64,000 nucleotides of DNA, taken from a virus. This document shows, piece after piece, positions 48,835-64,000 of the stretch (within the stretch, counting starts at the first letter, position 1; every line of letters starts with the position of its first letter). Location of the stretch: IMG/VR virus record IMGVR_UViG_3300021963_000035, positions 84,576 to 148,575 of that record, one strand, 5' to 3'. Position numbers and translations under genes: made by a program. The notes below the pieces were generated by a model, which worked only from the letters and a program-made list of their open reading frames with translations, ran no database searches and was not told the origin of the DNA.

Positions 48835-49614
48835 ATGGATCCCGTAACACTGTTTGCACTGGCCAACGGAGCAGTCTCCGCAGTTAAGGCTGGCTGTAAA
48901 CTGTACAAAGACATCAAAGGTGCAGCGGGTGACGTCAAGGATGTGCTGAAAGATCTAGATCAGCAGTTCCATAACCTATACGAAGGTCGAGGCCGCAAAC
49001 CTCCACCTGAAGCTGTCAAACAGTTAAATGAAGAAAAAGCCCGTGTAAAGGATCTAAACAAACGTTCAAATGAAACTACCAATCTGTATCAGGAAATTGG
49101 CAATCACCTTGGCACTTACTATGACAACTACTATAAGTGTCTAGCTGTATTTGAAGAAGAAGAGCGACGCTCAAAAACCGAAGTATACACTGGTGATTCA
49201 AGTCTGGGTAAACGGGCTCTACAGCGTGTACTGATGCGCAAGCAGCTGGAAGCAATGAGCACAGAACTGCGTGAGCTAATGGTATATCAAAGTCCTAAAG
49301 AACTAGGAGCACTGTATACTGAAGTTGAAGAAATGATGAAGCAAATGGGCAAAGAGCAGAAAACTGCTATTGCTGAACAGATGCGTAGATCAATGCGTCA
49401 AGCTGAAATCGATCGTAGGCGCAGAGATCGCATAATACACAGATCGTTAGTGTTGGGTATTGTAGCTTTTAGCCTAGTGGTGATAGTTCTTATGTTTAGT
49501 ACAGTCGTAGAAAGCCGTATACGCAAATATCCAGAGTTGGGCAACTGTGCTGTGCCACGCGGCAGTTGGTTATACTACAAGTGGACTAGATTAGAGTGGG
49601 CAACCTGTCATTGA
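48835..49614 (+). CDS. Coiled-coil membrane-anchored protein
   Basis: AGGAG RBS; MDPVT.FA.A N-terminus; C-terminal TM helix. Confidence 0.7.
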   Translation: MDPVTLFALANGAVSAVKAGCKLYKDIKGAAGDVKDVLKDLDQQFHNLYEGRGRKPPPEAVKQLNEEKARVKDLNKRSNETTNLYQEIGNHLGTYYDNYYKCLAVFEEEERRSKTEVYTGDSSLGKRALQRVLMRKQLEAMSTELRELMVYQSPKELGALYTEVEEMMKQMGKEQKTAIAEQMRRSMRQAEIDRRRRDRIIHRSLVLGIVAFSLVVIVLMFSTVVESRIRKYPELGNCAVPRGSWLYYKWTRLEWATCH

Positions 49615-49912
49615 ACTAAACCGAGTCCGGGTGGGGGGTATATTGATAAAAGTCTTGCCCAAATGGGGGTACAGGGGTAAAAAAATTAGGGCGCAAAAAA
49701 ATTAAGGTTTAACTACTTTTTCATCATGGTGGTGATTCTGCTACCCCTTGTTGCGTTTTTACAACACTACACACATTACGCCCCCCACCCCCCTCCACCA
49801 TGCCTCACCCTCCCACCCCATCCTTCAGAAAAATCCCAGAATTCCTGAAATTACCTAAAAAACCTAATCTAGCCCTCAGGGGGGTAGGATAACCCTGATC
49901 CCCCCAGGGTCT
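49615..49912. other. Non-coding strand-switch region with G-runs then C-runs (candidate genome end or origin)
   Basis: No ORF; convergent transcription; homopolymer tracts. Confidence 0.45.
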
Positions 49913-49947
49913 TTCGGTGGTGAGAAAGGCGACAGCACAGGGGCTGT

Positions 49948-49982
49948 AAAAAAACACAGTGTTGCAGTAGCGCAACACTGTG
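49948..49982 (-). terminator. Intrinsic terminator built without GG/CC
   Basis: CACAGTGTTGC-N6-GCAACACTGTG followed by T7 on minus strand. Confidence 0.75.
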
Positions 49983-50006
49983 CAAAAATGCAGTGTTGTT
50001 AAAACA

Positions 50007-50588
50007 CTACACAGCAGTAATAGTTACAATGTTGTTAAGCGCAATAGTGCGGCAAATAGCATTGTGTGTAATGTTGTGTGTAACATTGTGCGTTTGTGTG
50101 TTGCGATTAAACAACTGTTGTGCTTGCGCAGGCGTTAAGTATTGTGCAACGTCTTGCTTAGTTGCAAGTGTGTTGTTAATAAAATACATTGTGCTAGTTT
50201 GTGCGTTGTTAAAAAGCGCATACAAGTATTGTGCTAGCGTTTGCTTGTGTTGCACTACGCTATAGCAGTTAGTATGCTCAAAATAGTTTTCCTGCGCTGT
50301 AAACGCTTGCACATTGTTAGCGTTGTTAGTGGGGATAGCACTAGCAGTTTGTTTAACTAGCGTTGTGTATTGTGCGTTACTGTTAGCGTATAGCGTTACT
50401 GTTGCTTGTGTAACTTTTTTAATAGTAACGTCTTTGCATTTTGCGCTTGTTTTTACATTTGTAACATATGTAATTTGTGCGTTTTGCTGTTGTGCGTTGT
50501 TTAACACATTTGCTACGCATAGCGCAGTGATGTGTTGCTGTTGTGCGTGTTGTTGCAGTGCTGTTTGTGCTGTGTGTAGTGTTAGCAT
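50007..50588 (-). CDS. Early protein of extreme composition (Q/T/N/A/H-rich; no G/W, only 2 D, 2 E, 2 P)
   Basis: Own promoter (TTGCAC..TGCTATACT), AAGGA RBS, terminator. Confidence 0.75.
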   Translation of the reverse strand: MLTLHTAQTALQQHAQQQHITALCVANVLNNAQQQNAQITYVTNVKTSAKCKDVTIKKVTQATVTLYANSNAQYTTLVKQTASAIPTNNANNVQAFTAQENYFEHTNCYSVVQHKQTLAQYLYALFNNAQTSTMYFINNTLATKQDVAQYLTPAQAQQLFNRNTQTHNVTHNITHNAICRTIALNNIVTITAV

Positions 50589-50971
50589 TTTGCTAGTCCT
50601 TTTTTTTGTTGCTACACAATGTTGTGTAGTGCAGTTAGTATAGCACCGTTTTGGCTGTGTGCAACAAATAATTTAATAACATATTTTCTCAAGGGTCTTT
50701 CTCGGATACGCCTACCCCGACGCAGCAGCTGAACATGTGTCCACGGGGTTAGGTGCTGTCCCGGCGCATGCAGCTCACATGTGCTGTCGGGGTTGCATGC
50801 CTTTTGTCCCTGTGCAGTGATGTTGTGCAGCAGGATCGCCCTGGGGCATGCGTCGTGCTGGCGTCCATCGAGGATCCTTGCGGGGAGGATAAAAAAAGCC
50901 CGCCGGGTCTATTCACCGGACGGGCCAAAGGGGGAGGAGTAAGCCCCCGAGCACACTACGCAAAAATCAAA

Positions 50972-51157
50972 TCATCTGCTGTCCAGCCATTCATCGTGGC
51001 GGATCATGACGGTCCCCACCCAGGCTATCAGAAGACCGCCTAGCGATATCAGCACGGCTCCTAGTAGCATTGTGTCGTTGAGGCTGTTCTCTACGCCCCC
51101 GACCCCGAACATGGTTACGATTAATCCTACGATGAAAACAAACATACCTCGCTTCAT
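50972..51157 (-). CDS. Small two-TM membrane protein
   Basis: Coupled to upstream gene; hydrophobic. Confidence 0.65.
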   Translation of the reverse strand: MKRGMFVFIVGLIVTMFGVGGVENSLNDTMLLGAVLISLGGLLIAWVGTVMIRHDEWLDSR

Positions 51158-51402
51158 ACCGCCTCCACTGCTTGAGTAAAATAATCTGTGTTGAGATAGT
51201 CGTAGACTTCCAGGAGGCTGTCATCGTCTAACTCTCGGATACGCTGCTTGATGGTTTCCAGGTCCCAGCCATCCTCATCGAGATTGATAACCCCGAGGTC
51301 GAAGTCGAGGGCATACTGGAGAGCATCCTCGTTAGCATCGTCCCAGTAGAGCTCTAGGATCTCTACCACGGTGTCCTGTATCCTGGTCTTGATGTCGCTC
51401 AT
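51154..51402 (-). CDS. Highly acidic early protein
   Basis: AGGAG RBS; GGTTGACA..TAAACT promoter. Confidence 0.75.
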   Translation of the reverse strand: MSDIKTRIQDTVVEILELYWDDANEDALQYALDFDLGVINLDEDGWDLETIKQRIRELDDDSLLEVYDYLNTDYFTQAVEAV

Positions 51403-51539
51403 CTTGTGCTCCTTTAATTAAACAGTATCTAGAGTTTAACAGATTTTTGGATCCTGTCAACCAAAATAGGCCGCTGTGTAGCGGGGTCTATGGTGGTGTT
51501 GCACTAGCGCAACAGTGTGCGCTAGTGCTGTGTTACAGT

Positions 51540-51872
51540 TTAAGTAAACAAACGCAATACAATGCTGTTTTGTGTTACTACAATTTGCGCATTGTGTTTT
51601 TTAGCAATTTGCGTTAATGCTAAACAAACGCTTGTTGTGTTGTAAATTGTAACAGTTGCAAAGCGTTTACGAAAATTAGTAAAAATACGCTTTGTAAAAT
51701 ATTGTGCTTGCGCTGCTAATGCTAATGCGCTTAACTGTGCGTGTTGCTGTGCAGTATACAAATTTGCATACTGCGCATTTTGCTGTTTAGCGTGTAGTAT
51801 AGTGCGCAATTTACTGCGTGTGTTTTGTGTGTGCTTTGTGTGCTGCACTTGCACTTGTGTTTGTGTTTGCAT
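51540..51872 (-). CDS. Basic early protein with no D, E, G, P or W
   Basis: Extended -10 TGTTATAGT upstream; downstream hairpin; 110-aa open frame. Confidence 0.65.
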   Translation of the reverse strand: MQTQTQVQVQHTKHTQNTRSKLRTILHAKQQNAQYANLYTAQQHAQLSALALAAQAQYFTKRIFTNFRKRFATVTIYNTTSVCLALTQIAKKHNAQIVVTQNSIVLRLFT

Positions 51873-51976
51873 AGTGTGTGCTGTTTAAGTTGCTGCATAA
51901 AATTATGCAGTAACTACACTATAACACAAATTTAAAAAACTTTAGCGTTTTTAGAAACTTATTTTCCGTAGGGTCT

Positions 51977-52180
51977 TTATTGCCACAACTGCTGCTGCCG
52001 CTGCCAGCATGAGGGATTGCTCTGGGGTGTGCCCTTGCAGTTGAGATTCCTGGATTGACGAGGGGGGACCTGTTCAAACAGTGCGTGGCCAGGCTCCGGA
52101 TCCATGTGGAACCTCTGAGGGGCGCAGCCGGCAAGGATCCCGACGAGGACCCCGATGGTGACCATGGATGAAATCTTCAT
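51977..52180 (-). CDS. Putative lipoprotein
   Basis: Signal peptide with LAGC lipobox. Confidence 0.65.
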   Translation of the reverse strand: MKISSMVTIGVLVGILAGCAPQRFHMDPEPGHALFEQVPPRQSRNLNCKGTPQSNPSCWQRQQQLWQ

Positions 52181-52401
52181 GAAGGTGTGTGGGGTTGGTT
52201 GATGACCGCCAGGCCACGTGCCCTGGCATCCGCTTTAAGATATCTCATTAGTGCTCTCTGGATTCTCTCTTCGACGAAAGCCGCTTCCGCTGCTGTGAGC
52301 TCGGTCTCGGGAAGTTCGTCGTTAAGGACTTTAAGGACCACAGCCTGGCGATCAGCTGCCAGTCCCTGTGGTGTGAAGGTACACTTGCGCCATGTAGTCA
52401 T
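52177..52401 (-). CDS. Hypothetical protein
   Basis: Coupled ORF. Confidence 0.6.
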   Translation of the reverse strand: MTTWRKCTFTPQGLAADRQAVVLKVLNDELPETELTAAEAAFVEERIQRALMRYLKADARARGLAVINQPHTPS

Positions 52402-52748
52402 GTTTTCATATACTCCGCGCCCAACTCCTGTGGAATCGTCACGTTGGTTCCGGTGGGGAATTTCTGTGCTATCAGCTGGATCAGTTGCTTGGGATCATTG
52501 TGTTGCCCCAGGAAGCGATCACTAGGATGTTCGTAGGCGTAAAGGGTGTCACCGTGCCGCTCGATCTTGACCGTGGCCTGTGCTTCAGGTTCGTCTTGTG
52601 ATTCGATGGCTGCTCTCAGCTTCTGCTCTAATTCCCGGGGATCGATTCCCGCGGCACGCAGCGCGGACTTCATCATAGATCTAATGACGATACCGTGTAC
52701 GGCCCAACCTAACCAGAATGCGAAAGCGAAAAGGATGATCAGTTCCAT
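52398..52748 (-). CDS. Membrane-anchored hypothetical protein
   Basis: TAAATA-N5-ATG; N-terminal TM; LYAY....FL.Q. Confidence 0.7.
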   Translation of the reverse strand: MELIILFAFAFWLGWAVHGIVIRSMMKSALRAAGIDPRELEQKLRAAIESQDEPEAQATVKIERHGDTLYAYEHPSDRFLGQHNDPKQLIQLIAQKFPTGTNVTIPQELGAEYMKT

Positions 52749-52849
52749 AATTGTATTTACTCCAGGTTGCTGCTGCCTTGCATGTAGCGGGGTCTATGTT
52801 CATAGTATAGCACACGACCTGCTCACCTGCAAGTCGTGTGCTGTTGTGT

Positions 52850-53170
52850 TTAAGCCACAGCGTATTGCCGCAATGCTTGCTCAACTGCTATTACTGCTAG
52901 TTTGCTTCGGCCGCCAACGTGCCAGTCTGTAATGTGCTGTTTAGCAAGCCCTGCTTCGCCGCAGTAATTTTTGCCATCTTTGTAATTGTAGATAGTTGCA
53001 ACAACGCCGTTGCTAAATTGCAACTCCCATTCTGCGTCCGTCTTGTAAGCGTCCCCCTCGCTGTGCTCTGGGCCAAACACGTCTACAAGTGTTGCGTAAT
53101 CTACATTAACATAACCCTGCAAGCTAGTGCCGTTTACTGCTTGCCATTTTGCTTGTTTAAAAGTTAGCAT
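52850..53170 (-). CDS. Early hypothetical protein
   Basis: AGGAGCG RBS; TTGACA..TATTAT promoter; L...FG.P, ATIY.YK, WHVGG motif. Confidence 0.8.
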   Translation of the reverse strand: MLTFKQAKWQAVNGTSLQGYVNVDYATLVDVFGPEHSEGDAYKTDAEWELQFSNGVVATIYNYKDGKNYCGEAGLAKQHITDWHVGGRSKLAVIAVEQALRQYAVA

Positions 53171-53235
53171 TTTGCGCTCCTGTTGTTCACTGCGTTATTG
53201 CAGTGTGTTTATAATAGCACCTGTTGTCCAAAATG

Positions 53236-53382
53236 TCAACCACGTAGACCCTGTAGATAACTCTCACGCAGGAGTCGACGCTGTTCTTTGTAGCGTAGCT
53301 GTCTGGCCAAAAAGCCCGGAGATTCAAACCAATCTTGTAGGCAATGACGGGTTTGTCGGCGACGCCTTGCTCTCATCTTCAT
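53236..53382 (-). CDS. 48-aa Arg-rich peptide (not in ORF track)
   Basis: AGGAGCGAAC RBS before ATG; MKMRARRRRQ... Confidence 0.55.
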   Translation of the reverse strand: MKMRARRRRQTRHCLQDWFESPGFLARQLRYKEQRRLLRESYLQGLRG

Positions 53383-53413
53383 GTTCGCTCCTTGTCTTTA
53401 ACTGTCAACCAAA

Positions 53414-53626
53414 TTAATATGCAGCTTCGTCTGGTGCACCCCAGGCGCACTCACGTTCCTGAGCGCGGATCATCTCCCACTGATCACGGATCACAAGCTT
53501 GGCCGCAGCCACGTCCCCGTTGCATTCTTCGAGGATGTCGTTATAATCTGCTGCGTCCCAGCACTCTACGATCCAATGACCGCCTGCTTCGTAGTTGTCC
53601 AGGGCATACTGATAAAGTTCGTTCAT
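53414..53626 (-). CDS. Acidic early hypothetical protein
   Basis: AGGAGCG RBS before MNELYQ; promoter upstream. Confidence 0.7.
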   Translation of the reverse strand: MNELYQYALDNYEAGGHWIVECWDAADYNDILEECNGDVAAAKLVIRDQWEMIRAQERECAWGAPDEAAY

Positions 53627-53682
53627 TTTGCGCTCCTTGTTGTGGAGTTCATATAATAACACATTTTGGGCTCAGTGCAACC

Positions 53683-53767
53683 AAAAAAAAAGGATAACCC
53701 TACGTGCTGTAAGGTTATCCTTGGAACTGCTACAGCTTCCCGGGAGCGAATCGGTTTAGGCCATAGC
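53683..53767 (-). ncRNA. Candidate 3'-UTR anti-Shine-Dalgarno hairpin plus terminator (copy 1)
   Basis: CCGATTCGCTCCCGGG identical to copy 2; outer stem GCUAUGGC/GCUGUAGC. Confidence 0.5.
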
Positions 53768-54049
53768 TGCTTCTTTGGCTGCTGCCTTAGAAGTCTTTGC
53801 GGGAGCGTACTTGCTCTCAACGTGTTCAATCGCGGACTGAACAGCGGCATTTCCCTGACCGTAGCCGATGCTGCGGAGATGGGCCACGATTTCAGCCTTG
53901 GTCATCTCGTGTGGGAGATTGATCAGGTCCACATCGTTGTGGCCGTTCTTTGCCAGGATCTTGATTCGCATCTGATCGTTGGCGAAGCGCAGCTTGGTCT
54001 TGCCATTAAGGGTTGAAACGCCTGCTACTGAAAAACGCTTGTCTGTCAT
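53756..54049 (-). CDS. Hypothetical protein
   Basis: GAGG RBS; TTGACA promoter; VAGVS..NG..K.RFAND. Confidence 0.75.
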   Translation of the reverse strand: MTDKRFSVAGVSTLNGKTKLRFANDQMRIKILAKNGHNDVDLINLPHEMTKAEIVAHLRSIGYGQGNAAVQSAIEHVESKYAPAKTSKAAAKEAAMA

Positions 54050-54145
54050 TTGAGTTACCTCTCTGTGTGTTTAAAAAAAGCACCAAACCATTTGGTACGT
54101 TATTATGTTAACACCGGTTTGGTTTGGTGTCAACCGTTTTTTTGC

Positions 54146-54337
54146 CTAATTTGGCAAAACTTGTATCGTAACGCTTTGGGTCTCTCCCAATGCGTTCACG
54201 AAAGCATCATCGTATACTAGTTCCTTGAAAGTCAGATCCAGCATCTCTTCAACCATCGCGAGATCAGCAGATCCATCTGATGCGCATTCGATCGTTAAAC
54301 GGAATTCATATGTTCTCATCGTTGCCAGCTTTCCCAT
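54146..54337 (-). CDS. Hypothetical protein
   Basis: ORF in the minus-strand run. Confidence 0.55.
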   Translation of the reverse strand: MGKLATMRTYEFRLTIECASDGSADLAMVEEMLDLTFKELVYDDAFVNALGETQSVTIQVLPN

Positions 54338-54597
54338 TTAAGAAGATACAGTGCCAATGCTTCTTCAGCCAGATACACACTGCTCTTTTCACTGTCCCAT
54401 GCCCACTTAGGTTGGGTCCCATCGAAGAAGTCAGGACGAGCAAATGCCAGCTCAGCACTGGGTCCAAACTGCATCCACAGCCAGTTACGGCTCTGGATCC
54501 ATTGATTCACCCTCTCGTCTCTACCGTAGAATTCTACCCTATGGCTGAATCTGCCATAGCCATCATATCTCCGGTCTAATTTAATAAGTTTCATCAT
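54316..54597 (-). CDS. Hypothetical protein (small family ending ..LKW)
   Basis: W.W.QFGPS.EL motif; start at MMKLIKL. Confidence 0.6.
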   Translation of the reverse strand: MMKLIKLDRRYDGYGRFSHRVEFYGRDERVNQWIQSRNWLWMQFGPSAELAFARPDFFDGTQPKWAWDSEKSSVYLAEEALALYLLKWESWQR

Positions 54598-54622
54598 ACA
54601 TGCACATGCGTAGTAGCGGGGT

Positions 54623-55282
54623 CTATGAGTTGACTGTGTTATGAGGATCGTATTCCCCAATCAGCCCTACAGACTTACGCTGTTCCGCACCTTCCTTAAC
54701 GAATGCATAGAGTTCTTCCTCCATGCGTTGCTCTTCTTCATACTCAGCGAGATACTCACTGATACCAAACATCTCGTCCAGCTCTTCTGGAAGGATATCA
54801 CGAGCCTCTTCACTGGTCTGCCATTCGGTCCAGCAGTTGTCCTCACCATCCTCATAGACTCCAGCGAAACACATGCCGGGCTCGTAATACATAGCGCGGA
54901 TCTTGTAGCCTTGCTCTTCCATGATGGGATAGATGTTCAAAGGCGGCGACCAGGCAGTATCAAAGTTCAGAACGATATTGTTCTCATCGATACGGCTGTC
55001 TCCTCCACGCTCGCCACAGTCCCACTTGGTTCCCCAGTTGCTGGTCTGCCAGTCATACCAATCCTTAGCGCCAAAATACTTGAGATTCAGTTGCTGTTTG
55101 AACTGATTCAGTTCCTCAGCATAACTGTCTCCCAGATAACCGGCCACGGTCTCGTGCAGTTCCTTAGGGCAAGGTTTGATGTAATCCAACATCCGCCCTT
55201 GTCTGAATGCACGACGTAGACCCGCGATCTTGCGAGGATCTTCGTGGCTGACTTCCAAATGATTGTTGCACCAATTAGGCAT
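54623..55282 (-). CDS. DUF1281/YubB ferredoxin-like family protein
   Basis: MPNWCNN, WYDW...NWGTKW, FDTAWSPP, YYEPGM.F.G. Confidence 0.8.
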   Translation of the reverse strand: MPNWCNNHLEVSHEDPRKIAGLRRAFRQGRMLDYIKPCPKELHETVAGYLGDSYAEELNQFKQQLNLKYFGAKDWYDWQTSNWGTKWDCGERGGDSRIDENNIVLNFDTAWSPPLNIYPIMEEQGYKIRAMYYEPGMCFAGVYEDGEDNCWTEWQTSEEARDILPEELDEMFGISEYLAEYEEEQRMEEELYAFVKEGAEQRKSVGLIGEYDPHNTVNS

Positions 55283-55318
55283 AACTCGCTCCTTTCAAAG
55301 TATGCGTATATTATACGC

Positions 55319-55543
55319 TCATCTTTTCAAAATGTCAACCAATTTCTGGTTCTGCATATCCTGATAGTTGCGAGCCATCAGTTCGTCGAAACGATCGATC
55401 ATGCGATCTTCGATACGACGTGCATTCATGTCAAAGATCTGACCAACCGTCTTAAGGATCTTGTGCTGTGCCATGAGTGTTGTGCCGGGATCCTCAAGCA
55501 CTGCCATGGCCCGTTGAATGTATTCAAACTCTTGAGGTGTCAT
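55319..55543 (-). CDS. Hypothetical protein
   Basis: Coupled ORF. Confidence 0.6.
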   Translation of the reverse strand: MTPQEFEYIQRAMAVLEDPGTTLMAQHKILKTVGQIFDMNARRIEDRMIDRFDELMARNYQDMQNQKLVDILKR

Positions 55544-55971
55544 ACGGGGAGATCTCCCTTGTTGATTCGCCGCAGCAGACAGGTAAGAGTAAAGTCTCGA
55601 TTGACCATGAACTTCTTAGGCCAGTCACGGATCTCCCAATCATCCAAGTTCATGGTCTGGTGACGCTTGACTTTGCCACGAGGACCAACAACCTGGATTT
55701 CCCAAAGTTTGCTGTTTCGGCCAATGCCACCCATCTTGGCCGTCACGACATTGTTCTGATGTTTCACAGTGTAGGTCTTGGTCTTGGGATCGTAGGAATG
55801 TTCATAAGCCATCAACTGATCACTGATGGCCTTCTGTGCATTGCGGATCTGTTGATTGCGTAATCGATTGCCAATGCTGGTCAGATCGTTGTGTGTGAGG
55901 CCGTAGAGTCCTGCCATCATCAGGATCTTCTCTTTGGCTTCCTTCTTGGCCTGTTTCTCTTGCAAGTCCAT
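55540..55971 (-). CDS. Hypothetical protein
   Basis: AAGGAA RBS; promoter upstream. Confidence 0.7.
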   Translation of the reverse strand: MDLQEKQAKKEAKEKILMMAGLYGLTHNDLTSIGNRLRNQQIRNAQKAISDQLMAYEHSYDPKTKTYTVKHQNNVVTAKMGGIGRNSKLWEIQVVGPRGKVKRHQTMNLDDWEIRDWPKKFMVNRDFTLTCLLRRINKGDLPV

Positions 55972-56019
55972 GTCTGTTCCTTTGTGCTAATAATAACAGG
56001 GCCCTAAGGCCCTGTCAAC

Positions 56020-56388
56020 TCAATCAACTACATGCACTTCCTTAAAGCTCTCGTAGCCGTATTTCTTTTCCCACGCGGCAATAAAGTCCCCGTCTACGTC
56101 TAAGCTAACGTAGTTGTCTCCCTGCATGCCCTGCTCGCTGTAGTCTGCTTCCGCAAGGCCCTGTTCTGCGAGGAATGCGTTAAGCTCTACTAAAAAGTTG
56201 CTGTCTGTGTAAATTAGTCCGTCTTCGTTAACGTCCCAATCGTCTGTGTTAAAATACACGCACAGCTCGCCAAAGTCTTTGTCGTCTACAACATAGCCCA
56301 AGTCTATGCCTGTAATACGCACTGCCTTAGACACTTTGCTCCAGTAGCCGTCGCCAGCAGTGTTAAAAGTTGCTCTCACTGTTTGCAT
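56020..56388 (-). CDS. Acidic early protein lacking Pro
   Basis: AGGAGCGAA RBS; own promoter. Confidence 0.8.
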   Translation of the reverse strand: MQTVRATFNTAGDGYWSKVSKAVRITGIDLGYVVDDKDFGELCVYFNTDDWDVNEDGLIYTDSNFLVELNAFLAEQGLAEADYSEQGMQGDNYVSLDVDGDFIAAWEKKYGYESFKEVHVVD

Positions 56389-56455
56389 TGTTTCGCTCCT
56401 GTGTGTTAATGTTCAAATAGTATAACAGGGCCCTAAGGCCCTGTCTACCAAAATA

Positions 56456-56818
56456 TTAAATACCCTGGAACTTTGAAAGGACTTCTTGTGCGCTTTCATC
56501 TAGCATAACTGCGTCCATAGCCTTGCGCTTCTCAATGTCAAGCTCTGCGCGGTATGCTTCCATAGCCAGCTTCTTTGCTTCCATTGCGGGCCAAACTACA
56601 TCTTGCGGGTTGAGGTAAGGACCTGTATAATCTTCCTTTTCCTCTTTAAGTGTGATCTCGCCTGCTTTAATTGCTGCGAACACTTGTCCCCAGGTAGGCT
56701 GTTGAGGACGACCGCTAGGACCAAAAAGTTCTACAGCCTTAGACTGTAGTTTATCTGCAACGATCTCCTCCAAACGGCGGATGAAGTAAGAACGTTGTTC
56801 TGTGGACATTGCTTGCAT
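56456..56818 (-). CDS. Hypothetical protein
   Basis: AGGAGCG RBS; promoter. Confidence 0.75.
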   Translation of the reverse strand: MQAMSTEQRSYFIRRLEEIVADKLQSKAVELFGPSGRPQQPTWGQVFAAIKAGEITLKEEKEDYTGPYLNPQDVVWPAMEAKKLAMEAYRAELDIEKRKAMDAVMLDESAQEVLSKFQGI

Positions 56819-56881
56819 ATTGCGCTCCTAAGTTTCACTGCACATCGCAGTATCATTAGTATAGCACCTGCAGGGTTTGGG

Positions 56882-57157
56882 TCAACCGTTTTTTTCAATA
56901 CCCGACTTAGTTATAGGGTTTCTCTTGCGGGCTTTCTTTCGGGCGGGCCTGCGTTCCTTGAACTCGTTAGCCACATACCACGCGACCAGTTGCCGTTGGA
57001 TCATCGTGACCAGATCGCCGAAGTCATCTGGAACTACAAAACGGACCGGACACTTGCCCCAGGTATTGTGCTTGACGAATTCTGCATAATACCTACGATG
57101 CTGTTTATTGCTAGCATCGAATGCTACAAAAGGGCGGCCGGTCAGTTCTAGTTTCAT
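56882..57157 (-). CDS. Hypothetical protein
   Basis: FD..N..HR..Y..F.....WG.CP.RF motif. Confidence 0.7.
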   Translation of the reverse strand: MKLELTGRPFVAFDASNKQHRRYYAEFVKHNTWGKCPVRFVVPDDFGDLVTMIQRQLVAWYVANEFKERRPARKKARKRNPITKSGIEKNG

Positions 57158-57288
57158 TTTGTGGTTTCTTTAATAACCCCTGTGGCCACAGCGTTGGTTG
57201 TATCAACGGCACGGCCGAATAGTTCTTTGGTCACTGCGGGGTACAGTACGGCCAAAGTTAAGATCACTCCTAAAAGAATTTTGCCCAT
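57154..57288 (-). CDS. 44-aa membrane peptide (not in ORF track)
   Basis: GGAGG RBS; MGKILLGVILTLAVLYP; ATGA overlap. Confidence 0.55.
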   Translation of the reverse strand: MGKILLGVILTLAVLYPAVTKELFGRAVDTTNAVATGVIKETTK

Positions 57289-57289
57289 G

Positions 57290-57667
57290 TTAGGCCTCCT
57301 GTGTGTGTGAGTTAGCGATCGTTAGCAAGAACAATTTACGACCGAGCTTTCGGGCTTCGGACTTAGCTTCATTCAATGCTTCCCATATTATATCATCAAT
57401 CATTCCGTCTGTCAATACATCTTTGGAATCCTCATAGAGCATGCCCCCAAGGTGAGCCTCTCCTAAGACATATTTGTCAAACACGCAACGGACTCTCAAC
57501 ATAAACCAATCGAGATCGCCCCGATCGATCTGTCTGCAGATATCCTCTATATCATACACGGAGTCATCGAATAAGTCTCCGGGGTGTGCATCTTCCCAGC
57601 TCTTTTCCACGACTACAGTGAATCCTTCACGATCGAGTCTTGCCAGTTGTTCCCAATGACGTTGCAT
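57290..57667 (-). CDS. Hypothetical protein
   Basis: AGGAGGAGCGAAC RBS before MQRHWE. Confidence 0.75.
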   Translation of the reverse strand: MQRHWEQLARLDREGFTVVVEKSWEDAHPGDLFDDSVYDIEDICRQIDRGDLDWFMLRVRCVFDKYVLGEAHLGGMLYEDSKDVLTDGMIDDIIWEALNEAKSEARKLGRKLFLLTIANSHTQEA

Positions 57668-57735
57668 GTTCGCTCCTCCTAAGTAACTACAGTATAGCAC
57701 AAAAGAAAACCCTACTCAGTGTAGGGTTTTGTGTC

Positions 57736-57926
57736 TTACTCCTTGAATTCAATGTTAATATCGAGATCACGTGCCAGTGCGTACTGTTCTACGACGTCCA
57801 TGTCGTAGTCATTGAGAACCAGCAGCGTGTTGCCTGTGAACATGACATCTAGGATGTCAAGTCCTTCGAGATCTTCTAGGATCTCGCGTTGTTTAGAAAT
57901 CGTCATCATTGTCATACCAGTGCTCC
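57736..57926 (-). CDS. Acidic hypothetical protein (start uncertain)
   Basis: Overlaps the end of the upstream acidic peptide. Confidence 0.5.
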
Positions 57927-58054
57927 GGAAGGTTTGCATCTTGTTCGTCTGCCCACTCGTTGTATTCCTCCTGGAACTCTGCATATTCCTCAGGAGTCAT
58001 CTCGTAGTGTGCGGGAATGAATTCATCGCTTTGAATGCTATCAAAAGGACCCAT
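57893..58054 (-). CDS. 53-aa extremely acidic peptide (not in ORF track)
   Basis: AGGAGAGCGAA RBS and own promoter; 18 D/E, 0 K/R. Confidence 0.7.
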   Translation of the reverse strand: MGPFDSIQSDEFIPAHYEMTPEEYAEFQEEYNEWADEQDANLPEHWYDNDDDF

Positions 58055-58125
58055 TTCGCTCTCCTAGTTAACTGCACATCGCAGTAATCAAATAATAACA
58101 GGGCCCGAAAGCCCTGTCAACCAAA

Positions 58126-58473
58126 TTAACCCTCCAGCTGGTAGGGTTTATTCCACTGCCCAATGTTCACATCAATGTACCAGCCTACGTCAAAGTAATC
58201 TGTCTGCGCATCGCTGCGATCGTGGTTACCGTCATTCATCGCTGGGATTAGCTCCTTGAGCAGCTCCAGGGGCCGTCCAGTGAAGTGCTCGTGATACCAG
58301 TAAGGGTTGACCTGGATGCGATCGCCTCCGAAGTCGATGGATCCCTTGCTGATGTTCACCACTAGGGTGCTGTGGTTACGTACCGCGATCGAGCCCTTGA
58401 CCCCGTGCTTCTTGAGGATGGTCTTGATCGCAGGTGCCAGCTTGGCTTTCTTTTCCTGACTCATGTATGCCAT
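58126..58473 (-). CDS. Hypothetical protein
   Basis: GGAGA RBS before MAYMSQ; D.SD.QTDYFDVGWY...IG.W.KPY motif. Confidence 0.75.
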   Translation of the reverse strand: MAYMSQEKKAKLAPAIKTILKKHGVKGSIAVRNHSTLVVNISKGSIDFGGDRIQVNPYWYHEHFTGRPLELLKELIPAMNDGNHDRSDAQTDYFDVGWYIDVNIGQWNKPYQLEG

Positions 58474-58492
58474 GATTCTCTCCTGTGTGTGT

Positions 58493-58675
58493 TCAGCTAT
58501 TTTGCAATGCCTGCATCTCTTTGTCAACCAAATAACTGGCCAGGTTCAGGGCCATCATTGCCGCTGTGATGGCCGCTACTCGCTCCCCACCTGTGTGCAG
58601 CATGCACCAGTCGATGAGATCCTGCGAGGTTGTGGGTGTGTCAAACAGACTGCTGTTGGGGATTGGGTTTTGCAT
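58493..58675 (-). CDS. Hypothetical protein
   Basis: AGGAGCGAAC RBS; promoter. Confidence 0.7.
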   Translation of the reverse strand: MQNPIPNSSLFDTPTTSQDLIDWCMLHTGGERVAAITAAMMALNLASYLVDKEMQALQNS

Positions 58676-58844
58676 GGTTCGCTCCTTGCTGTTGATCGTA
58701 CAGCTAGTATAGCACCTATTTTGGCTCCTGCAAGAGAATCTTTTTAAATATTTTGGTTGACAGGCTGTCCAAAAAAACGCATACTGTAGGTATGCGTTCG
58801 ATCGGGCAGTCCGGGGGTGGACGGCGAGGCTGCGCGAGTGGTTC

Positions 58845-59054
58845 TTAAAACCCCGCGGCGGCTTCCAGCTGCTGCTGAAGGGACTTGAGAGAGTCGAAGG
58901 CGGCCTTATAATGCGGGTCGATCTCTTTGTTGGGGGTGAACTGCTGATCTTGTCCTGCTATCATGCCTACGGCCCAGATAGCTCTGTTGACTGCTTCTCT
59001 ACGGACGTTTAGTATTTCTTCTGCTGTTGGCGGTGTTTTATCTTGTGCGGTCAT
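58845..59054 (-). CDS. Hypothetical protein
   Basis: Coupled to upstream methyltransferase-like gene. Confidence 0.55.
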   Translation of the reverse strand: MTAQDKTPPTAEEILNVRREAVNRAIWAVGMIAGQDQQFTPNKEIDPHYKAAFDSLKSLQQQLEAAAGF

Positions 59055-59596
59055 TTGTGTCCAATCTTCATATAACGGGTAAATCCCCATGTAGGGTATT
59101 TAAACGATTTCTCGCCCGTATATAAAGATTGTGACATAGGCCAACAGTTGCTGAACTCGTCTATGCTAGTGTAGCAGTGTACGTGATCATCATGGGGCAT
59201 GTCATTGCCCTGTAGCGCGATCAGTGTCCCGTTGGGAATGCGATCGTACCACTCGCGGGAATCAATGTGTTCCACGCTGGTGTTGATGATTAGATCAGGA
59301 GCAGTAGTCCAGGTCAGCTGATTAACATCTGCGGTTACTGCTGTAAACTCACCCTGCCAGTGCCACAGACGGTTCACGTGTATGGCCGTGCTTTCGCAGC
59401 TAGGATCTATGTCGTAGCTGGTAACATGTTGTATGGGTAGAGTGTTCTGTGTGCGCAACAGCAGGTTGGTAGTACAATACCAGCCCGCAAGTACATGTAT
59501 GCGTAAGGGTTGCAGCGGGGTCAATACCTGTGCTAGTGTCTCCCCGAGCCAGAGCTTGGATCCTATCTGGCCTGAGGAGAAACTATCCCAATTCAC
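59051..59596 (-). CDS. SAM-dependent methyltransferase-like protein
   Basis: VLAGWY, SYDIDP, DLIINTS.EH motifs. Confidence 0.65.
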   Translation of the reverse strand: MNWDSFSSGQIGSKLWLGETLAQVLTPLQPLRIHVLAGWYCTTNLLLRTQNTLPIQHVTSYDIDPSCESTAIHVNRLWHWQGEFTAVTADVNQLTWTTAPDLIINTSVEHIDSREWYDRIPNGTLIALQGNDMPHDDHVHCYTSIDEFSNCWPMSQSLYTGEKSFKYPTWGFTRYMKIGHK

Positions 59597-60825
59597 CCTT
59601 CTAGATTCTCGTAGATAACAGTCTGTCCAAAGGGTGCTTCTGCAGAAGTATTGCCCTTGACGATGAACAGGGTTTCACAGTATTCTTCGTCACCCCAACC
59701 ACCGCAGGGATAACCATCTGTGAACATAATGAACTTCTTCGGACGGAGATCACGCTCTTTCATGTATTCCCAATTGACTTCGAAGTCTGTGCCGCCGCCA
59801 CCTTGAGGTTCATAGCTCAACAATGCGTCACCGTCGTCGTGCGTGAAGCGTTGTGGGTTATAGATGTCTGTGTCAAAGCACCAGATGTCAATAGCGTAGT
59901 CCTGATACTGATCCATGATGCCTTTAACCTCTGACAGGAATGCAGTTGCATCCTCAGTGCCAATTGAACCTGACATATCAATGCCGATGGCCACGTCAAT
60001 GGTCTCATCGTTCTTCATTCCAGGAAGGATAGCGCCACTGTGCCAGCTCTTGCGATTAGGACGGGTGAATGCGTAGTCATTACGCACGATGCTCTGGATG
60101 TTCATCTGCAGAACATCACGCCAGTTCATCTTAGGTTCAGTCAAGTCCTTGAGCAGACGTTGCACACCTGCGGGCACCTTGCCAGCACCTGCGGCCGCGG
60201 CACTCTGGATCATTGCTTCTTTGATCTCGTCACGCAGTTTCTCTGCTTCTTCCTTGGTTAGTGTAGGCTTTGAACTTACACCCTGGCCACTCTTGCCTTG
60301 TTTATCGCCGCCTGCACCAGGACCCTCTTCTTCGTTGATATGTTCATCAAGCAGGTCGCCCAGTTGCTTGAGCAGTTGGCTCATAGGAATCTTCTCAGCC
60401 TGCTCCCAGAGCTTGTCGTAGATCTCTTCCCAGGCCATGCCACGATACTTATTGTCCTGGCAGATCTTGACTTCAGTAATACGCTCGCCGATGCGATCAT
60501 CTACGAGGATCTGATTCACAGCGTAGTCCTGCGCGATGTTGCTGAGCTGACGATCACGGCTACCAACACGGCCAAAGTGATCAAAGACACAATGCAGGAT
60601 CTCGTGTGCGAACAAGAACTCCAGCTTCTTGGTGTTGAGCTTCTTGACAAACTCAGTGTTGTAAAAGAAATTACGCCCGTCAGTTGCGGCAGTAGGGCAC
60701 CAGTCGTCTGCACAACGGATCTGCATACGGGTGGCCATGTTGCCAAAGAAGGGAGCCTTGAGTAGCAGTCCTACACGGGCTGTGATTAACTTTTCTTCGA
60801 TTGCTTTGTCTACGGTAACGGGCAT
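59593..60825 (-). CDS. Metallopeptidase-like (HExxH) plus vWA domain protein (DUF2201-type)
   Basis: TAATDG, HEILH; DMSGS MIDAS, GGGT.F, FTDG. Confidence 0.85.
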   Translation of the reverse strand: MPVTVDKAIEEKLITARVGLLLKAPFFGNMATRMQIRCADDWCPTAATDGRNFFYNTEFVKKLNTKKLEFLFAHEILHCVFDHFGRVGSRDRQLSNIAQDYAVNQILVDDRIGERITEVKICQDNKYRGMAWEEIYDKLWEQAEKIPMSQLLKQLGDLLDEHINEEEGPGAGGDKQGKSGQGVSSKPTLTKEEAEKLRDEIKEAMIQSAAAAGAGKVPAGVQRLLKDLTEPKMNWRDVLQMNIQSIVRNDYAFTRPNRKSWHSGAILPGMKNDETIDVAIGIDMSGSIGTEDATAFLSEVKGIMDQYQDYAIDIWCFDTDIYNPQRFTHDDGDALLSYEPQGGGGTDFEVNWEYMKERDLRPKKFIMFTDGYPCGGWGDEEYCETLFIVKGNTSAEAPFGQTVIYENLEG

Positions 60826-60939
60826 TTCGCTCTCCTAGTTGCTCAGTGTCTTTACAGTATATAGTCGCAGATTAGTTCTGTCAACCAAAAAGGTGGGAGG
60901 GGAACCCTGAGCAAGCCCCCCTCCCTAGCGCACGAGGTC

Positions 60940-62016
60940 TTAGTTCTCCATTGCGCTCAAAACATACTTGCCAAAACGCTTGTGGAACTCGTCAAAGTTC
61001 TTGAGCTTGGTGGCATCCAAGGGCAAGTTGTAATTGGTAAGGGCTGTCTTGGCACCCATAACCACCAACTCAGTTGGGAAGCAGTCCATCATGTAGCGGA
61101 AGAAGTTGTCTGCCTTGGCATCCCAGTCCTTGACCTTCTTGTCTGCCATGTCCTTGAGCTCATAGCAGAGGCTAACGGTCAAAGAATACATCGCCGACAC
61201 TTCTTTGATAGCCAAGTCCTTGACCTTGCCTTCGAGGATGTCGATGGCCTTGGGCAATTTGCCTGCGATCTTGCGGTGTGCCATAAACTTGTGTGCAAGT
61301 CCATCACCCACAGCGCCTGCGATCAGATCAGTCAGCGTGGCTTCGTCAGTGTCATCGTCCTGTAGCAGATCGCTTACGAACGACCAGGAGCGAGGCGTAG
61401 CGAATGCGTGGCTGGCGCTCTTAGGATCAAAGTCATACAAGTCCTGCTTGGCGAAACCAACATAACCAACGACCTGCTCGTGGATACGATTCAGGGTGGC
61501 CCAGTCTTGCCAGTCGTCGAAGTCCACTTTGGCTTCCAAGTGCAGGAATCGATTAGCCAATGGCTTAGGCATACGATAAGTCACGCCACGGTCACCATCG
61601 CGGTTACCAGCGGCAACGATATCTACACCCTTAGGTAGCACATAAGTGCCAACACGACGGTTCAGCACCAACTGGTATGCCGCGGCTTGGACTGCGGGTG
61701 GAGCAGAGTTCAGCTCATCCAGGAAGATGATCGCACGGCTGTCTGGATCCTGCGGCAGTTCTGCGGGAGGAGCCCACACCATGGTCTTGGTGTCTGCGTT
61801 GTAATAAGGGATACCCTTGATGTCGGTGGGTTCCCAAAGGGGTAGTCGAACATCGATCACTTCACGACCGGTGTCATCACCGATCTGCTTGACGATATCA
61901 CTTTTGCCAATGCCTGGAGGGCCCCACAGGAACACAGGACGGCGCTTTTGGATGGCCTTCAGGATAGCCTTCTTGGCTTTCTTAGGACCTACGGTACGGA
62001 TTGATTTGTCGCTCAT
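60940..62016 (-). CDS. MoxR-like AAA+ ATPase
   Basis: GPPGIGKS, IIFLDELN, AAGN, LANRF, TPRSW. Confidence 0.9.
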   Translation of the reverse strand: MSDKSIRTVGPKKAKKAILKAIQKRRPVFLWGPPGIGKSDIVKQIGDDTGREVIDVRLPLWEPTDIKGIPYYNADTKTMVWAPPAELPQDPDSRAIIFLDELNSAPPAVQAAAYQLVLNRRVGTYVLPKGVDIVAAGNRDGDRGVTYRMPKPLANRFLHLEAKVDFDDWQDWATLNRIHEQVVGYVGFAKQDLYDFDPKSASHAFATPRSWSFVSDLLQDDDTDEATLTDLIAGAVGDGLAHKFMAHRKIAGKLPKAIDILEGKVKDLAIKEVSAMYSLTVSLCYELKDMADKKVKDWDAKADNFFRYMMDCFPTELVVMGAKTALTNYNLPLDATKLKNFDEFHKRFGKYVLSAMEN

Positions 62017-62096
62017 TTAAGACCTCGTAAAGTTGAAAAAACATTACCTCGCTCAGTTGCTCAGTGTCTTTATTATGCCGCCAAACAGTGGACCTG

Positions 62097-62720
62097 TCAA
62101 GCGATTTTAACGTAATTTAATTGTGTTGTTTTATCGCCACGCTGGCTCTTGATCTTGCCTTTGACAGTCACAGTGCCCTTGATATCCTTGGGATACCAGA
62201 AGTCCACGTAGCTTTCACCCATGCGAGCGAAGATGCGATACTTCATGTATTGTTCACTGAAGTAGCTGCGGTAGACTTCTGCGCTGCCCACCACACGATC
62301 TCCCTCGTTGCCCGCTAGCTGCTCTGAATCCCGGATGCTGGCATCGATACCCTTCTTGAGGATGTCTCTACGCTGCGCTTCGGGGAGGCTGCTGATGATG
62401 GCAAAGTCCAGCATGTCACGGCCCGTGAACTCGTCCTTCTGCGCGATCTTGAGTACACTGCGCTCGAAGTCGTTGATCTTCCCGCTGAGTTCTTTCAGCA
62501 GCAGACCCTTGAAGTAGTGGCGCACTTCAGCACCCTTTTCTAGATCACCCTCTTGCAGCACAGAGAAATCATTGGCCTGCAGCCAGGACTTGACCATGCT
62601 CTTGTTCTCACGTGTGGCGATCTCGCCCGTGGCCTGATCGTGTACAGGATATTTGTAGTATCCCTGATTGATGCGATCTGCTGCGACCGCCAGTGCCCAA
62701 ACCTGATCTGCTGTAAACAT
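62097..62720 (-). CDS. Hypothetical protein with C-terminal OB-fold-like region
   Basis: AGGAGCG RBS; ends KGKIK...TQLNYVK. Confidence 0.7.
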   Translation of the reverse strand: MFTADQVWALAVAADRINQGYYKYPVHDQATGEIATRENKSMVKSWLQANDFSVLQEGDLEKGAEVRHYFKGLLLKELSGKINDFERSVLKIAQKDEFTGRDMLDFAIISSLPEAQRRDILKKGIDASIRDSEQLAGNEGDRVVGSAEVYRSYFSEQYMKYRIFARMGESYVDFWYPKDIKGTVTVKGKIKSQRGDKTTQLNYVKIA

Positions 62721-62778
62721 GTCACGCTCCTTTGTGTAAGTATCTACACTATAGCATCAGTATTTAGATGCTGCAACC

Positions 62779-62853
62779 AAAAAGAAAGGGCTGCGACGGC
62801 TAAGTGCAGCCCCTTCCAAAACCCGCCCCGGGAGCGAATCGGATTGGATTTTG
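62779..62853 (-). ncRNA. Candidate 3'-UTR anti-Shine-Dalgarno hairpin plus terminator (copy 2)
   Basis: Same 16-mer as copy 1; outer stem CAAAAUCC/GGGUUUUG. Confidence 0.5.
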
Positions 62854-62866
62854 TACGCTAACTCAA

Positions 62867-63112
62867 TTAAGCGAAGATCTGCTTGCGCTCACCGTTAACA
62901 TCGCGAGATGAAACAGTGTACTGGGCGCGGCCTTCAGTGTTCTTGTACTTGCGTACACGAAGTCCTGCTTGGCGGAACTCAGTCATGCGAGCACGAAGGT
63001 TCATGATGCCGTAGGTAGCAGCAGCCTGGGCTGAGCTCAAGCTATTGCCTGTACCGCGAAGATAGCCTTCGAGAAATTCTTTTTGAGTTGTTTTAAGAGT
63101 AGTAAATGCCAT
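62867..63112 (-). CDS. Winged helix-turn-helix DNA-binding protein
   Basis: LS.AQA...YGI.NLRAR..E.R.AG..V. Confidence 0.75.
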   Translation of the reverse strand: MAFTTLKTTQKEFLEGYLRGTGNSLSSAQAAATYGIMNLRARMTEFRQAGLRVRKYKNTEGRAQYTVSSRDVNGERKQIFA

Positions 63113-63204
63113 TTTTAAAGTTTCCTTAATTAACGGCTGTTGTTCAACAGCGTGAGTTAATTATAGTATAACCCTGGGAGCTGGTCAACTCCCAGGTTTA
63201 CCAA

Positions 63205-63414
63205 TCACTTCTTGACCGTGACCTCTGTCTTGAGATAGGTTCCGATGACCACCACGGCTAACCAGGTCCAAAACGTGTACTGGATAGCCAGCACGGGGAA
63301 CAGTGTATTAAGTGCCCAGATAACCACCCAGGGGAACAGGACCACCCAGATCAACAGTGCCAGGATGATACCAATGGCACCCAAACGAGTTAACAGATTA
63401 AACATATCATGCAC
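63205..63414 (-). CDS. Small membrane protein
   Basis: Hydrophobic; IWALNTLFP..AI.Y...TWLA. Confidence 0.7.
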   Translation of the reverse strand: MHDMFNLLTRLGAIGIILALLIWVVLFPWVVIWALNTLFPVLAIQYTFWTWLAVVVIGTYLKTEVTVKK

Positions 63415-64000
63415 CTTTCATGCAGGTTACTTCAGCCATACTCCGCCAGTTGTCAGGAAAGCTCTTGCGCAGATCTGACACCTTCAACACCATGCGCAGG
63501 CTGAGTTCGCGCATACGTTGTTTATTATCAGTGATGAATTCGACCACCTCATCGCGGACGGATTCTTCGAACTCATATGAATCCAGCATACCATCCTCTA
63601 CGATCTGGCGGATGCGCAACATCTTCTCACGTTCCGTGTCCATGGTCAGGTCCAGATAGTGACAGCGACTTTCCAGGGCCTCGAGGTGATCACGTAGCTT
63701 CTTTGAACGAACGTGTTCAAACTTGATGTTAGTGATGAAGATAGCACCCGCTTTAAACTCAAACTTGTCAGGTACGCCCTCATTACGTAGCACCCTAGAA
63801 TCAGTGTTCCAGCTAATGGTACGCTTCTTACTACTGTCCAAGGCCGCCTTCAAGATGTTCAAGCTGAGATCATCCAGCAGGATTGAGTCACAGTCATCGA
63901 ACACGATAACGTTACCCTTCTCTGAATACTTGTACAATTGCGAGTAAAGACCCACAGCACTCATGGCGCCCTTGATCACTTCGTACTTGGGCTTGCGTTG
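63407..64000 (-). CDS. AAA-type ATPase (5' truncated by window)
   Basis: IVFDDCD Walker B, LKAALDS, IFITN, ALESR. Confidence 0.75.
   Translation of the reverse strand, partial: QRKPKYEVIKGAMSAVGLYSQLYKYSEKGNVIVFDDCDSILLDDLSLNILKAALDSSKKRTISWNTDSRVLRNEGVPDKFEFKAGAIFITNIKFEHVRSKKLRDHLEALESRCHYLDLTMDTEREKMLRIRQIVEDGMLDSYEFEESVRDEVVEFITDNKQRMRELSLRMVLKVSDLRKSFPDNWRSMAEVTCMKGA

Follow-up and report, generated by a model that had tools for sequence, protein, structure and literature searches.

We looked at the final 64 kb (64,000 nucleotides, hereafter the window) of the 148,575-bp virus record IMGVR_UViG_3300021963_000035, in which a small hairpin occurs in the 3' untranslated regions (3'-UTRs) of two genes and presents a loop complementary to a ribosome-binding site (RBS) sequence, referred to here as the tag, of genes in the same cluster. 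The record has a GC content of 38.9%. It is about 42% complete by CheckV, an incomplete piece of a probable jumbo phage of about 350 kb, and since it is such a fragment the hairpin and tag counts per genome are lower bounds. The open reading frames (ORFs) of the whole record include some of 4452, 2890 and 1830 amino acids (aa), and genes for a tail sheath, a large terminase and a helicase identify a myovirus. Its closest cultured relatives form the Pseudomonas jumbo phage PA5oct group, with a terminase identity of 54%, and a search for near-identical DNA among cultured phages gave no match. Judging by these relationships, the phage is a distant T4-type myovirus. Between 52 and 64 kb, the minus strand of the window forms a dense early-type cluster with more than 12 near-consensus sigma-70 promoters, short transcription units and many intrinsic terminators. 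The cluster encodes a MoxR-type AAA ATPase, a DUF2201/vWA protein and a small winged-helix protein, the remaining genes having no known family. All window features given below lie on this minus strand.

The 16-mer CCGATTCGCTCCCGGG is found in exactly two exact copies, at 53739-53754 (site 1) and 62827-62842 (site 2). No match was obtained in 100 shuffles, and the repeat is not a chance event in a genome of 38.9% GC. An initial annotation of this DNA had placed the 16-mer between a stop codon and a terminator in two genes, and had described both copies as CCG and CGG enclosing AUUCGCUCC on differing outer helices; the position was borne out at both sites and the structure by folding. At site 1, the copy follows the stop codon TAA 53758-53756 and belongs to a hairpin spanning 53729..53767. 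Its outer helix GCUAUGGC/GCUGUAGC pairs 53767-53760 with 53736-53729 (8 bp including two G.U pairs) and overlaps the final codons of the gene, CCG at 53754-53752 pairs with CGG at 53742-53740, and the loop AUUCGCUCC occupies 53751-53743. A 51-nt fold shows this loop open above the 8-bp outer helix, and the covariance model described below (model R1) gives the hairpin 36.3 bits. At site 2, the copy follows TAA 62869-62867, and the hairpin, at 62817..62853, has the outer helix CAAAAUCC/GGGUUUUG (62853-62846 with 62824-62817), then a 2x2 internal loop, then a U.G pair and CCG (62843-62840) paired with CGGG (62830-62827), and the loop AUUCGCUCC at 62839-62831; model R1 gives it 57.2 bits. The minimum-energy fold of the whole 3'-UTR at this site consists of the 8-bp outer helix, the internal loop, the 4-bp inner helix and the open 9-nt loop, stacked on the terminator. 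This intrinsic terminator abuts hairpin 2 at 62779..62816 (stem 62816-62784 followed by a T run, from folding and sequence). The terminator adjoining hairpin 1, at 53681..53722, was found by a terminator scan and by folding, and has a 14-bp stem (53722-53690) and a T9 run. A promoter and then the next gene lie 3' of each hairpin-terminator unit. The loop CUCC might also pair, as a pseudoknot, with a GGAG where the terminator begins; by eye this pairing is not conserved, and the idea was rejected. A third copy of the 16-mer with two mismatches (TGGATTCGCTCCCGGG, 10976-10991) lies antisense inside the tail-sheath gene (1129 aa), where it is conserved as coding sequence and forms no hairpin; it was not retained as the element. 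The 280-kb relative L204 (relatives are cited by our own labels) carries GATTCGCTCCCGGGG at the equivalent tail-sheath position.

Both genes that carry a hairpin are single-gene units under their own promoters. Carrier gene B, upstream of hairpin 1, lies at 53756..54049 and encodes a 97-aa protein of no known family (MTDKRFSVAGVSTLNGKTK...); its sigma-70-like promoter is at 54133-54105 and its RBS is GAGAGG. Carrier gene A, upstream of hairpin 2, lies at 62867..63112 and encodes an 81-aa winged-helix protein (Pfam HTH_39), with a promoter at 63188-63160 and the RBS AAGGAA. The leader of carrier gene B contains, between its promoter and its RBS, a terminator-like hairpin followed by T7 (54098-54074), which could be an attenuator.

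The tag was looked for at ribosome sites of the cluster, and all eleven sites named in the initial annotation, with GGAGCG(AA) or GAGCGAA, were present as described. The full tag GGAGCGAA is the RBS of the genes starting at 53382 (tag 53384..53391), 56388 (56392..56399), 57667 (57669..57676) and 58675 (58678..58685). Variants with GGAGCG or GAGCGAA precede seven further starts. They are GGAGCG before 53170 (53175..53180), before 53626, the first gene 3' of hairpin 1 (53631..53636), before 56818 (56823..56828) and before 62720, a 207-aa gene that is the first one 3' of hairpin 2 (62725..62730); GGAGCGAG before 55282 (55285..55292); and GAGCGAA before 58054 (58055..58061) and before the DUF2201/vWA gene at 60825 (60826..60832). 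The tag belongs to translation initiation and not to the promoter, because its spacing to the start codon is fixed while its distance to the -10 box varies from 19 to 32 nt. It is also concentrated in the genome: 13 of the 23 GAGCG-plus-start sites of this fragment fall within 9.5 kb, and a 280-kb relative has all six of its gene-strand GGAGCGAA copies inside the 12 kb that hold both its 3'-UTR hairpins. Two of the early promoters of the cluster, at 58119-58096 and 56445-56424, contain a perfect G+C-rich hairpin GACAGGGCC...GGCCCTGT between the -35 TTGACA (or TAGACA) and the -10 box, a feature also seen in the distant relative L281; this spacer hairpin may be an operator or a structured promoter.

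Viral contigs were scanned for exact matches to the 16-mer. This gave at least 119 loci, mostly true relatives with about 70-75% nucleotide identity in the neighbouring genes, and in these relatives the 16-mer stands at the homologous intergenic site. Against circularity, relatives were collected through proteins (the ATPase, carrier B and carrier A) rather than through the motif, the carrier-A and ATPase samples being the best 80 of at least 548 and the best 80 of at least 596 loci. The protein-found relatives contain more than 95 distinct copies of the hairpin, with a bipartite stem, a co-varying outer helix and a 9-nt loop (A/G)UUCGCUCC. A covariance model across relatives, which had been proposed as a check of the initial annotation, was built from 47 copies; applied to 81 ATPase-anchored sources it gave 69 hits, and the 68 substantial ones all map to the gene strand, at two syntenic positions. 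Five large relatives have two to four occurrences of the loop motif, always on one strand, and the 3'-UTR pair is 7-10 kb apart, as in the window. All 12 matches to GATTCGCTCCC in these five relatives are on the gene strand, two of the 12 not being 3'-UTR hairpins.

The structure itself was examined copy by copy. The loop is open in the minimum-energy fold of 84 of 107 distinct 51-mers. In the outer helix, double changes were found at 9 of 9 pairs, filling 101 cells as against 46 +/- 8 after shuffling and 39-62 when the partner column was slid. In a register-free test, mean flank pairing was -11.4 kcal/mol for a copy's own flanks, compared with -7.2 for foreign and -6.5 for shuffled ones. Among 95 protein-anchored contexts, the loop is AUUCGCUCC or GUUCGCUCC in 85, and its variation is limited to A or G at position 1, an occasional C at position 2 and C-to-U changes only at positions 8-9, by which G.U pairing is kept. 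The CCG/CGG inner stem and the closing G-C pair are nearly invariant (91/95), and rare copies have quite different inner stems (CCTAGG, CCTTGG/CCAAGG, GTCACG/CGTGAC, and stems of 10 and 13 bp) under an unchanged loop. The T run of the terminator begins 31-48 nt 3' of the hairpin in nearly all copies. The window and most relatives have single hairpins at each site; tandem hairpins are found as two in L003, L038, L083 and L084 and as three in L050. Altogether, these comparisons show the hairpin to be a genuine RNA structure that is conserved and has an invariant loop. When 49000-64000 was scanned against Rfam at E<=1, no family was returned for it, only a chance sbrA match elsewhere; a full-text search for the motif strings found unrelated primers only, and keyword searches found no publication describing the element.

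Two further features were seen around the hairpin in relatives. In L199, L202, L013 and L033, the stop codon is followed at once, before the hairpin, by a further partial anti-tag (GGTTCGCTCC or CGCTCC) that seems to be unstructured. At hairpin site 2, many relatives (e.g. L004:1960-1990 and L201) share a conserved box CCGGCACTCC, placed 3' of the terminator T run and ahead of the -35 element of the next promoter; this box may be a regulator site, and the window has no copy of it.

The same comparisons bear on whether the 16-mer could act as double-stranded DNA, as an operator, another protein-binding site or a DNA hairpin acting on nearby promoters. The next promoter does have its -35 box 50-58 bp further downstream, the 16-mer contains the palindrome CCCGGG, and the carrier at site 2 is a winged-helix protein. 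However, its distance to the promoter varies, the 68 substantial covariance model hits and the 12 GATTCGCTCCC matches are without exception on the gene strand, the flanking outer helix co-varies, copies on unrelated stems keep the loop alone, and the element always lies within a transcribed 3'-UTR, from stop codon to terminator. A DNA site, which the initial annotation had named as an outcome that would overturn its proposal, is therefore very improbable.

We then compared the loop with the ribosome sites of the relatives. As the initial annotation had proposed, the loop is complementary to the tag, its core UCGCUCC or UUCGCUCC pairing with GGAGCGA(A). In the hairpin-bearing clade, 8-mers were counted in the 22 nt preceding each of 798 distinct ORF starts, and AGGAGCGA, AAGGAGCG and GGAGCGAA rank as the top three. 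GGAGC is enriched 19-fold upstream of starts, and GGAG continues with CGAA in 165 of 681 occurrences. The loop core, in its conserved part, complements these top-ranking 8-mers exactly. From these counts and from its clustering in the genomes, the tag is real, private to the clade and confined to the early cluster. Its CGAA extension had been held unnecessary for 16S pairing, and it indeed adds nothing with the canonical 16S tail, which may not be the tail of the host. With the same reservation about the host's tail, the predicted loop-tag duplex is worth -10 to -13 kcal/mol, compared with -5.6 to -8 for the tag with the canonical 16S tail.

Hairpin and tag are also present or absent together. 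In the sample anchored on the winged helix-turn-helix (wHTH) protein, GGAGCGA accounts for 20-100% (mean 40%) of the GGAG-type sites at each of 53 hairpin loci, as against 0 of about 146 such sites in 22 loci without the hairpin. On a tree of 55 distinct wHTH proteins, which rests on about 90 residues, the hairpin state changes four times by parsimony, compared with a mean of 15.3 when labels are shuffled, and the tag follows each time. The ATPase-anchored clade B has neither hairpin nor tag, and the same is true of the most distant carrier-B homologues (L280-285); no different loop/tag pair was seen in the clade-B loci or in these distant homologues. The carrier-B homologue L233 has a decayed loop (AUUCG) together with GGAGCA sites and no GGAGCGA. 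PA5oct, the nearest cultured relative, was searched for both motifs and has neither.

A different reading of the conserved structure is that the hairpin is a protein-binding RNA element, recognised by a phage or host protein through its closing G-C pair and loop, that controls termination or read-through at the adjoining terminator in the manner of nut/boxB, or 3'-end stability, and that its complementarity to the tag is incidental. At practically all sites an intrinsic terminator adjoins the hairpin, a near-invariant CCG/CGG stem with its closing G-C pair is typical of protein recognition, and the carriers are two particular small genes, one of them for a winged-helix protein; in the Cuckoo/CcsR system, an upstream small protein binds the downstream hairpin RNAs (PMC8034643). 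On the other hand, the loop core exactly complements the most enriched upstream 8-mers (a loop of 9 nt would do so by chance with a probability of about 2 x 4^-8), the tag disappears together with the hairpin, loop variation is peripheral to the tag pairing or wobble-compatible with it, and some wHTH homologues have no hairpin at all. The resemblance to lambda-type nut/boxB is limited to the position upstream of a terminator, the 9-nt loop having no GNRA fold and the alignments no boxA-like conserved flank. We consider a purely protein-binding role unlikely.

We looked at the genes that carry the hairpin and at those that follow it. Across relatives, hairpins are tied to two small-gene families, one of a wHTH protein of about 90 aa and the other of a protein of about 100 aa starting M-x-TDKKFAVAGVST; the carrier-B homologues in 74 loci have the hairpin directly 3' of their stop codon. 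The initial annotation had stated that the two window carriers do not use the tag, and this is so, the start at 54049 using GAGAGG and that at 63112 using AAGGAA. In relatives, the RBS of the winged-helix carrier family is AAAGGAAAC. Of 104 distinct ORFs whose end lies directly 5' of a hairpin, only one has a tag RBS, compared with about 34% of neighbouring genes, and this ORF encodes a 290-aa protein in L084 that is outside both carrier families. In L125 (5230-5300), the end of the wHTH gene runs straight into the coding sequence of the gene of about 207 aa, and the hairpin, terminator, promoter and RBS are all gone; this fusion is either a deletion variant or an assembly artefact.

These observations bear on whether the loop acts within one transcript or on other RNAs. 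It could act as a clamp in cis, so that on read-through of the terminator the loop sequesters the GGAGCG site some 110-140 nt downstream, and that gene is translated only from the transcript of its own promoter. Each window hairpin has a promoter and a GGAGCG gene 3' of it, the first downstream gene is tagged GGAGCG or GAGCGA in 80 of the 102 contexts where such a gene was found (mostly at site 2, with the gene of about 210 aa), and the ATPase pairing of the same cluster, described below, is intramolecular by position. Against this, strong terminators stand between the loop and the ribosome site. Action in trans is favoured because the carriers have no tag, many tagged genes have no hairpin upstream, the genes downstream of site 1 are often untagged in relatives (AAGGACAC, GAGAGGCG or AAGAGGAT), and some relatives have tandem arrays; arrays of two or three copies suggest a dosage effect and not a one-to-one clamp. 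A clamp is possible on read-through transcripts at site 2, and as the general function of the hairpins we regard it as quite unlikely. A kissing-loop arrangement, with the tagged RBS in a hairpin loop closed by the AUG, was also tried; its frequency is 11.5% compared with 6.0 +/- 0.9% in shuffles, a weak enrichment among related sequences, and was not adopted.

We give slightly better than an even chance to the reading in which the loops pair, in trans, with the tagged ribosome sites and thereby lower the translation of early genes. Each of the two small early genes would end in a short 3'-UTR made of a bipartite hairpin stacked on an intrinsic terminator. These structured 3' ends would accumulate in early infection, either within the carrier mRNAs or as stable 3' fragments, and their loops would bind in trans to the tag, that is, to the SD (Shine-Dalgarno sequence) and spacer of mostly promoter-proximal genes in the sigma-70-driven early cluster of about 10 kb. 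The 30S subunit would be occluded, the loop-tag duplex being predicted to be stronger than the pairing of the tag with a canonical 16S tail, and translation of the tagged early genes would be damped or shut off. The carriers would escape through their other ribosome sites. Stable expression of the RNA, its processing, its action in trans and the repression of tagged genes are what we infer from the sequences. The initial annotation had similarly read the hairpins as trans-acting 3'-UTR-derived RNAs that silence an early regulon; of that interpretation, the conserved structure, the loop-tag complementarity, the joint presence and absence and the untagged carriers stand, and no compensatory loop/tag changes were found.

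The same pairing could have another outcome. RegB of phage T4 acts on GGAG in the Shine-Dalgarno sequences of early genes. Loop-tag pairing might protect or stabilise mRNAs, for instance by shielding GGAG from a RegB-like, GGAG-specific endoribonuclease or from host RNases, or might tether mRNAs, with no silencing. The evidence of complementarity and co-occurrence applies equally to this reading, and the phage is a distant T4-type myovirus. However, by covering the SD and spacer, a duplex of 8 bp would in itself keep the 30S subunit from binding, and RegB, RegA and S21 homologues sought in the fragment of about 42% gave no hits, which is a weak argument, since the control genomes gave none for RegB and RegA either and part of the genome is missing. 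We hold protection to be improbable.

Several points weigh against repression in trans, and we gather them here. Compensatory loop/tag substitutions were looked for and not found, GGAGCGAA being kept where the loop is ACUCGCUCC or UAGUCGCUCC; because such peripheral loop variants are unmatched by tag changes, the case for the pairing is one of complementarity and co-occurrence. That co-occurrence could in turn be mimicked by a shared genomic background and by exchange of carrier genes between genome kinds, which would give the appearance of repeated transitions. The near-invariant CCG/CGG is more than the presentation of a loop alone would need and could indicate protein recognition. At site 1, the minimum-energy fold of the full 3'-UTR slightly favours a competing small hairpin. 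Given the model-fitted alignment, RNAalifold returns the invariant inner helix and nothing more; it misses the outer helix because the register of this helix varies among copies, and was replaced by the fixed-column counts with slid controls and the register-free flank-duplex test given above. There are two to four hairpins per genome fragment as against at least 12 tagged sites, all under early promoters, so repression needs 3' ends that outlast the mRNAs. Finally, the phage is uncultured and is known from this single fragment.

The gene for the MoxR-type ATPase, within the same cluster, shows a separate anti-RBS pairing. Its RBS region ACGAGGTCTTA (62018..62028, start 62016) is the 5' partner, and the 3' partner TAAGACCTCGT at 60932..60942, made of the ATPase stop codon and the first 8 nt of the 3'-UTR, is its exact complement, with 0.01 matches expected by chance. 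The pairing is kept at 9-11 nt in 35 of 43 distinct homologue pairs, with compensatory changes such as GCGAGG/CCTCGC, TGGAGG/CCTCCA, GGAGAGG/CCTCTCC and AGGGGG/CCCCCT. In its sequence the ATPase mRNA thus looks like a self-closing mRNA of the icaR type. Since these compensatory changes mean that the clade selects for pairings of this kind, they raise the prior for the hairpin reading. In its widest form, which we put forward tentatively and as doubtful, that reading describes an RNA-only address system for translation, in which a private GGAGCGA tag and the anti-tag hairpins of two dedicated small transcripts would time the shut-off of the early regulon in trans while the MoxR ATPase mRNA closes itself in parallel, a protein-free functional analogue of RegA/RegB shut-off in T4.

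If repression by the loops is right, a large and widespread clade of environmental jumbo phages, with hundreds of contigs that have the element, would time early expression post-transcriptionally through an RBS tag and an RNA loop. Anti-SD RNAs that act on a whole regulon are few, and a phage case would be added to them; a conserved SD extension that brings no benefit for 16S pairing would also be explained. The tag and anti-tag would also form a compact, orthogonal pair for reporter systems, and loop and tag together give a handle, by sequence only, on the early regulon in uncultured phage genomes.

Among known systems, the Cuckoo/CcsR RNAs of Alphaproteobacteria resemble the element in having highly variable stems and one fixed C/U-rich anti-SD-like loop (PMC4615179, PMC8034643). 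They often come as 2-4 adjacent hairpins with the same loop; most phage loci have a single hairpin, and a few relatives have two or three. Moreover, they lie in, and are released from, the 3'-UTR of a small-protein gene, as the phage hairpins follow two fixed small carrier genes, and the protein CcaF1 binds CcsR (PMC8034643). They differ in their loop, CCUCCUCCC (PMC4615179) as compared with (A/G)UUCGCUCC in the phage, and in their targets, which are generic SDs, whereas the phage loop matches a tag made of SD and spacer that is private to early genes of the phage itself. They also belong to alphaproteobacterial chromosomes and DUF1127 genes and not to a phage with wHTH and unknown-family carriers, and their curated Rfam models gave no match in 49000-64000 at E<=1. 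In the icaR mRNA of Staphylococcus aureus, a 3'-UTR anti-SD pairs with the Shine-Dalgarno region in the 5'-UTR and blocks initiation (PMC3868564), a design to which the ATPase gene of the window (62028-62018 with 60942-60932) comes closest. The hairpin carriers differ from it, as 103 of 104 distinct carriers are untagged and have no complementary site at their own SD, hence no pairing with their own 5' end; in the phage, the anti-SD sits in a hairpin loop beside a terminator and the target is common to many genes. S. aureus RNAIII and the small RNAs (sRNAs) of the RsaE/RoxS type use exposed C-rich hairpin loops to pair with the SDs of several mRNAs and repress their translation. These are stand-alone sRNA genes acting on generic G-rich host SDs, unlike the phage loops, which are 3'-UTR elements of a virulent-type phage and would target a lineage-private CGAA extension. 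The c4 antisense RNA of phages P1 and P7 is phage-encoded and its loops pair with the ribosome-binding region of the phage's own mRNA, but it is processed from the leader of the operon under its control and has one target site, and the Rfam C4 covariance model had no hit at E<=1 in 49000-64000. As in the class of base-pairing sRNAs derived from 3'-UTRs, the element lies between a stop codon and the intrinsic terminator of the same mRNA and has a conserved seed complementary to target mRNAs, predicted to be single-stranded in 84 of 107 folds. Because its loop motif differs, because it has no Rfam match and because its target is a lineage-private SD extension, we place it outside the Cuckoo/CcsR and icaR families; from its sequence and position, it is most likely an anti-Shine-Dalgarno regulatory RNA similar to both.

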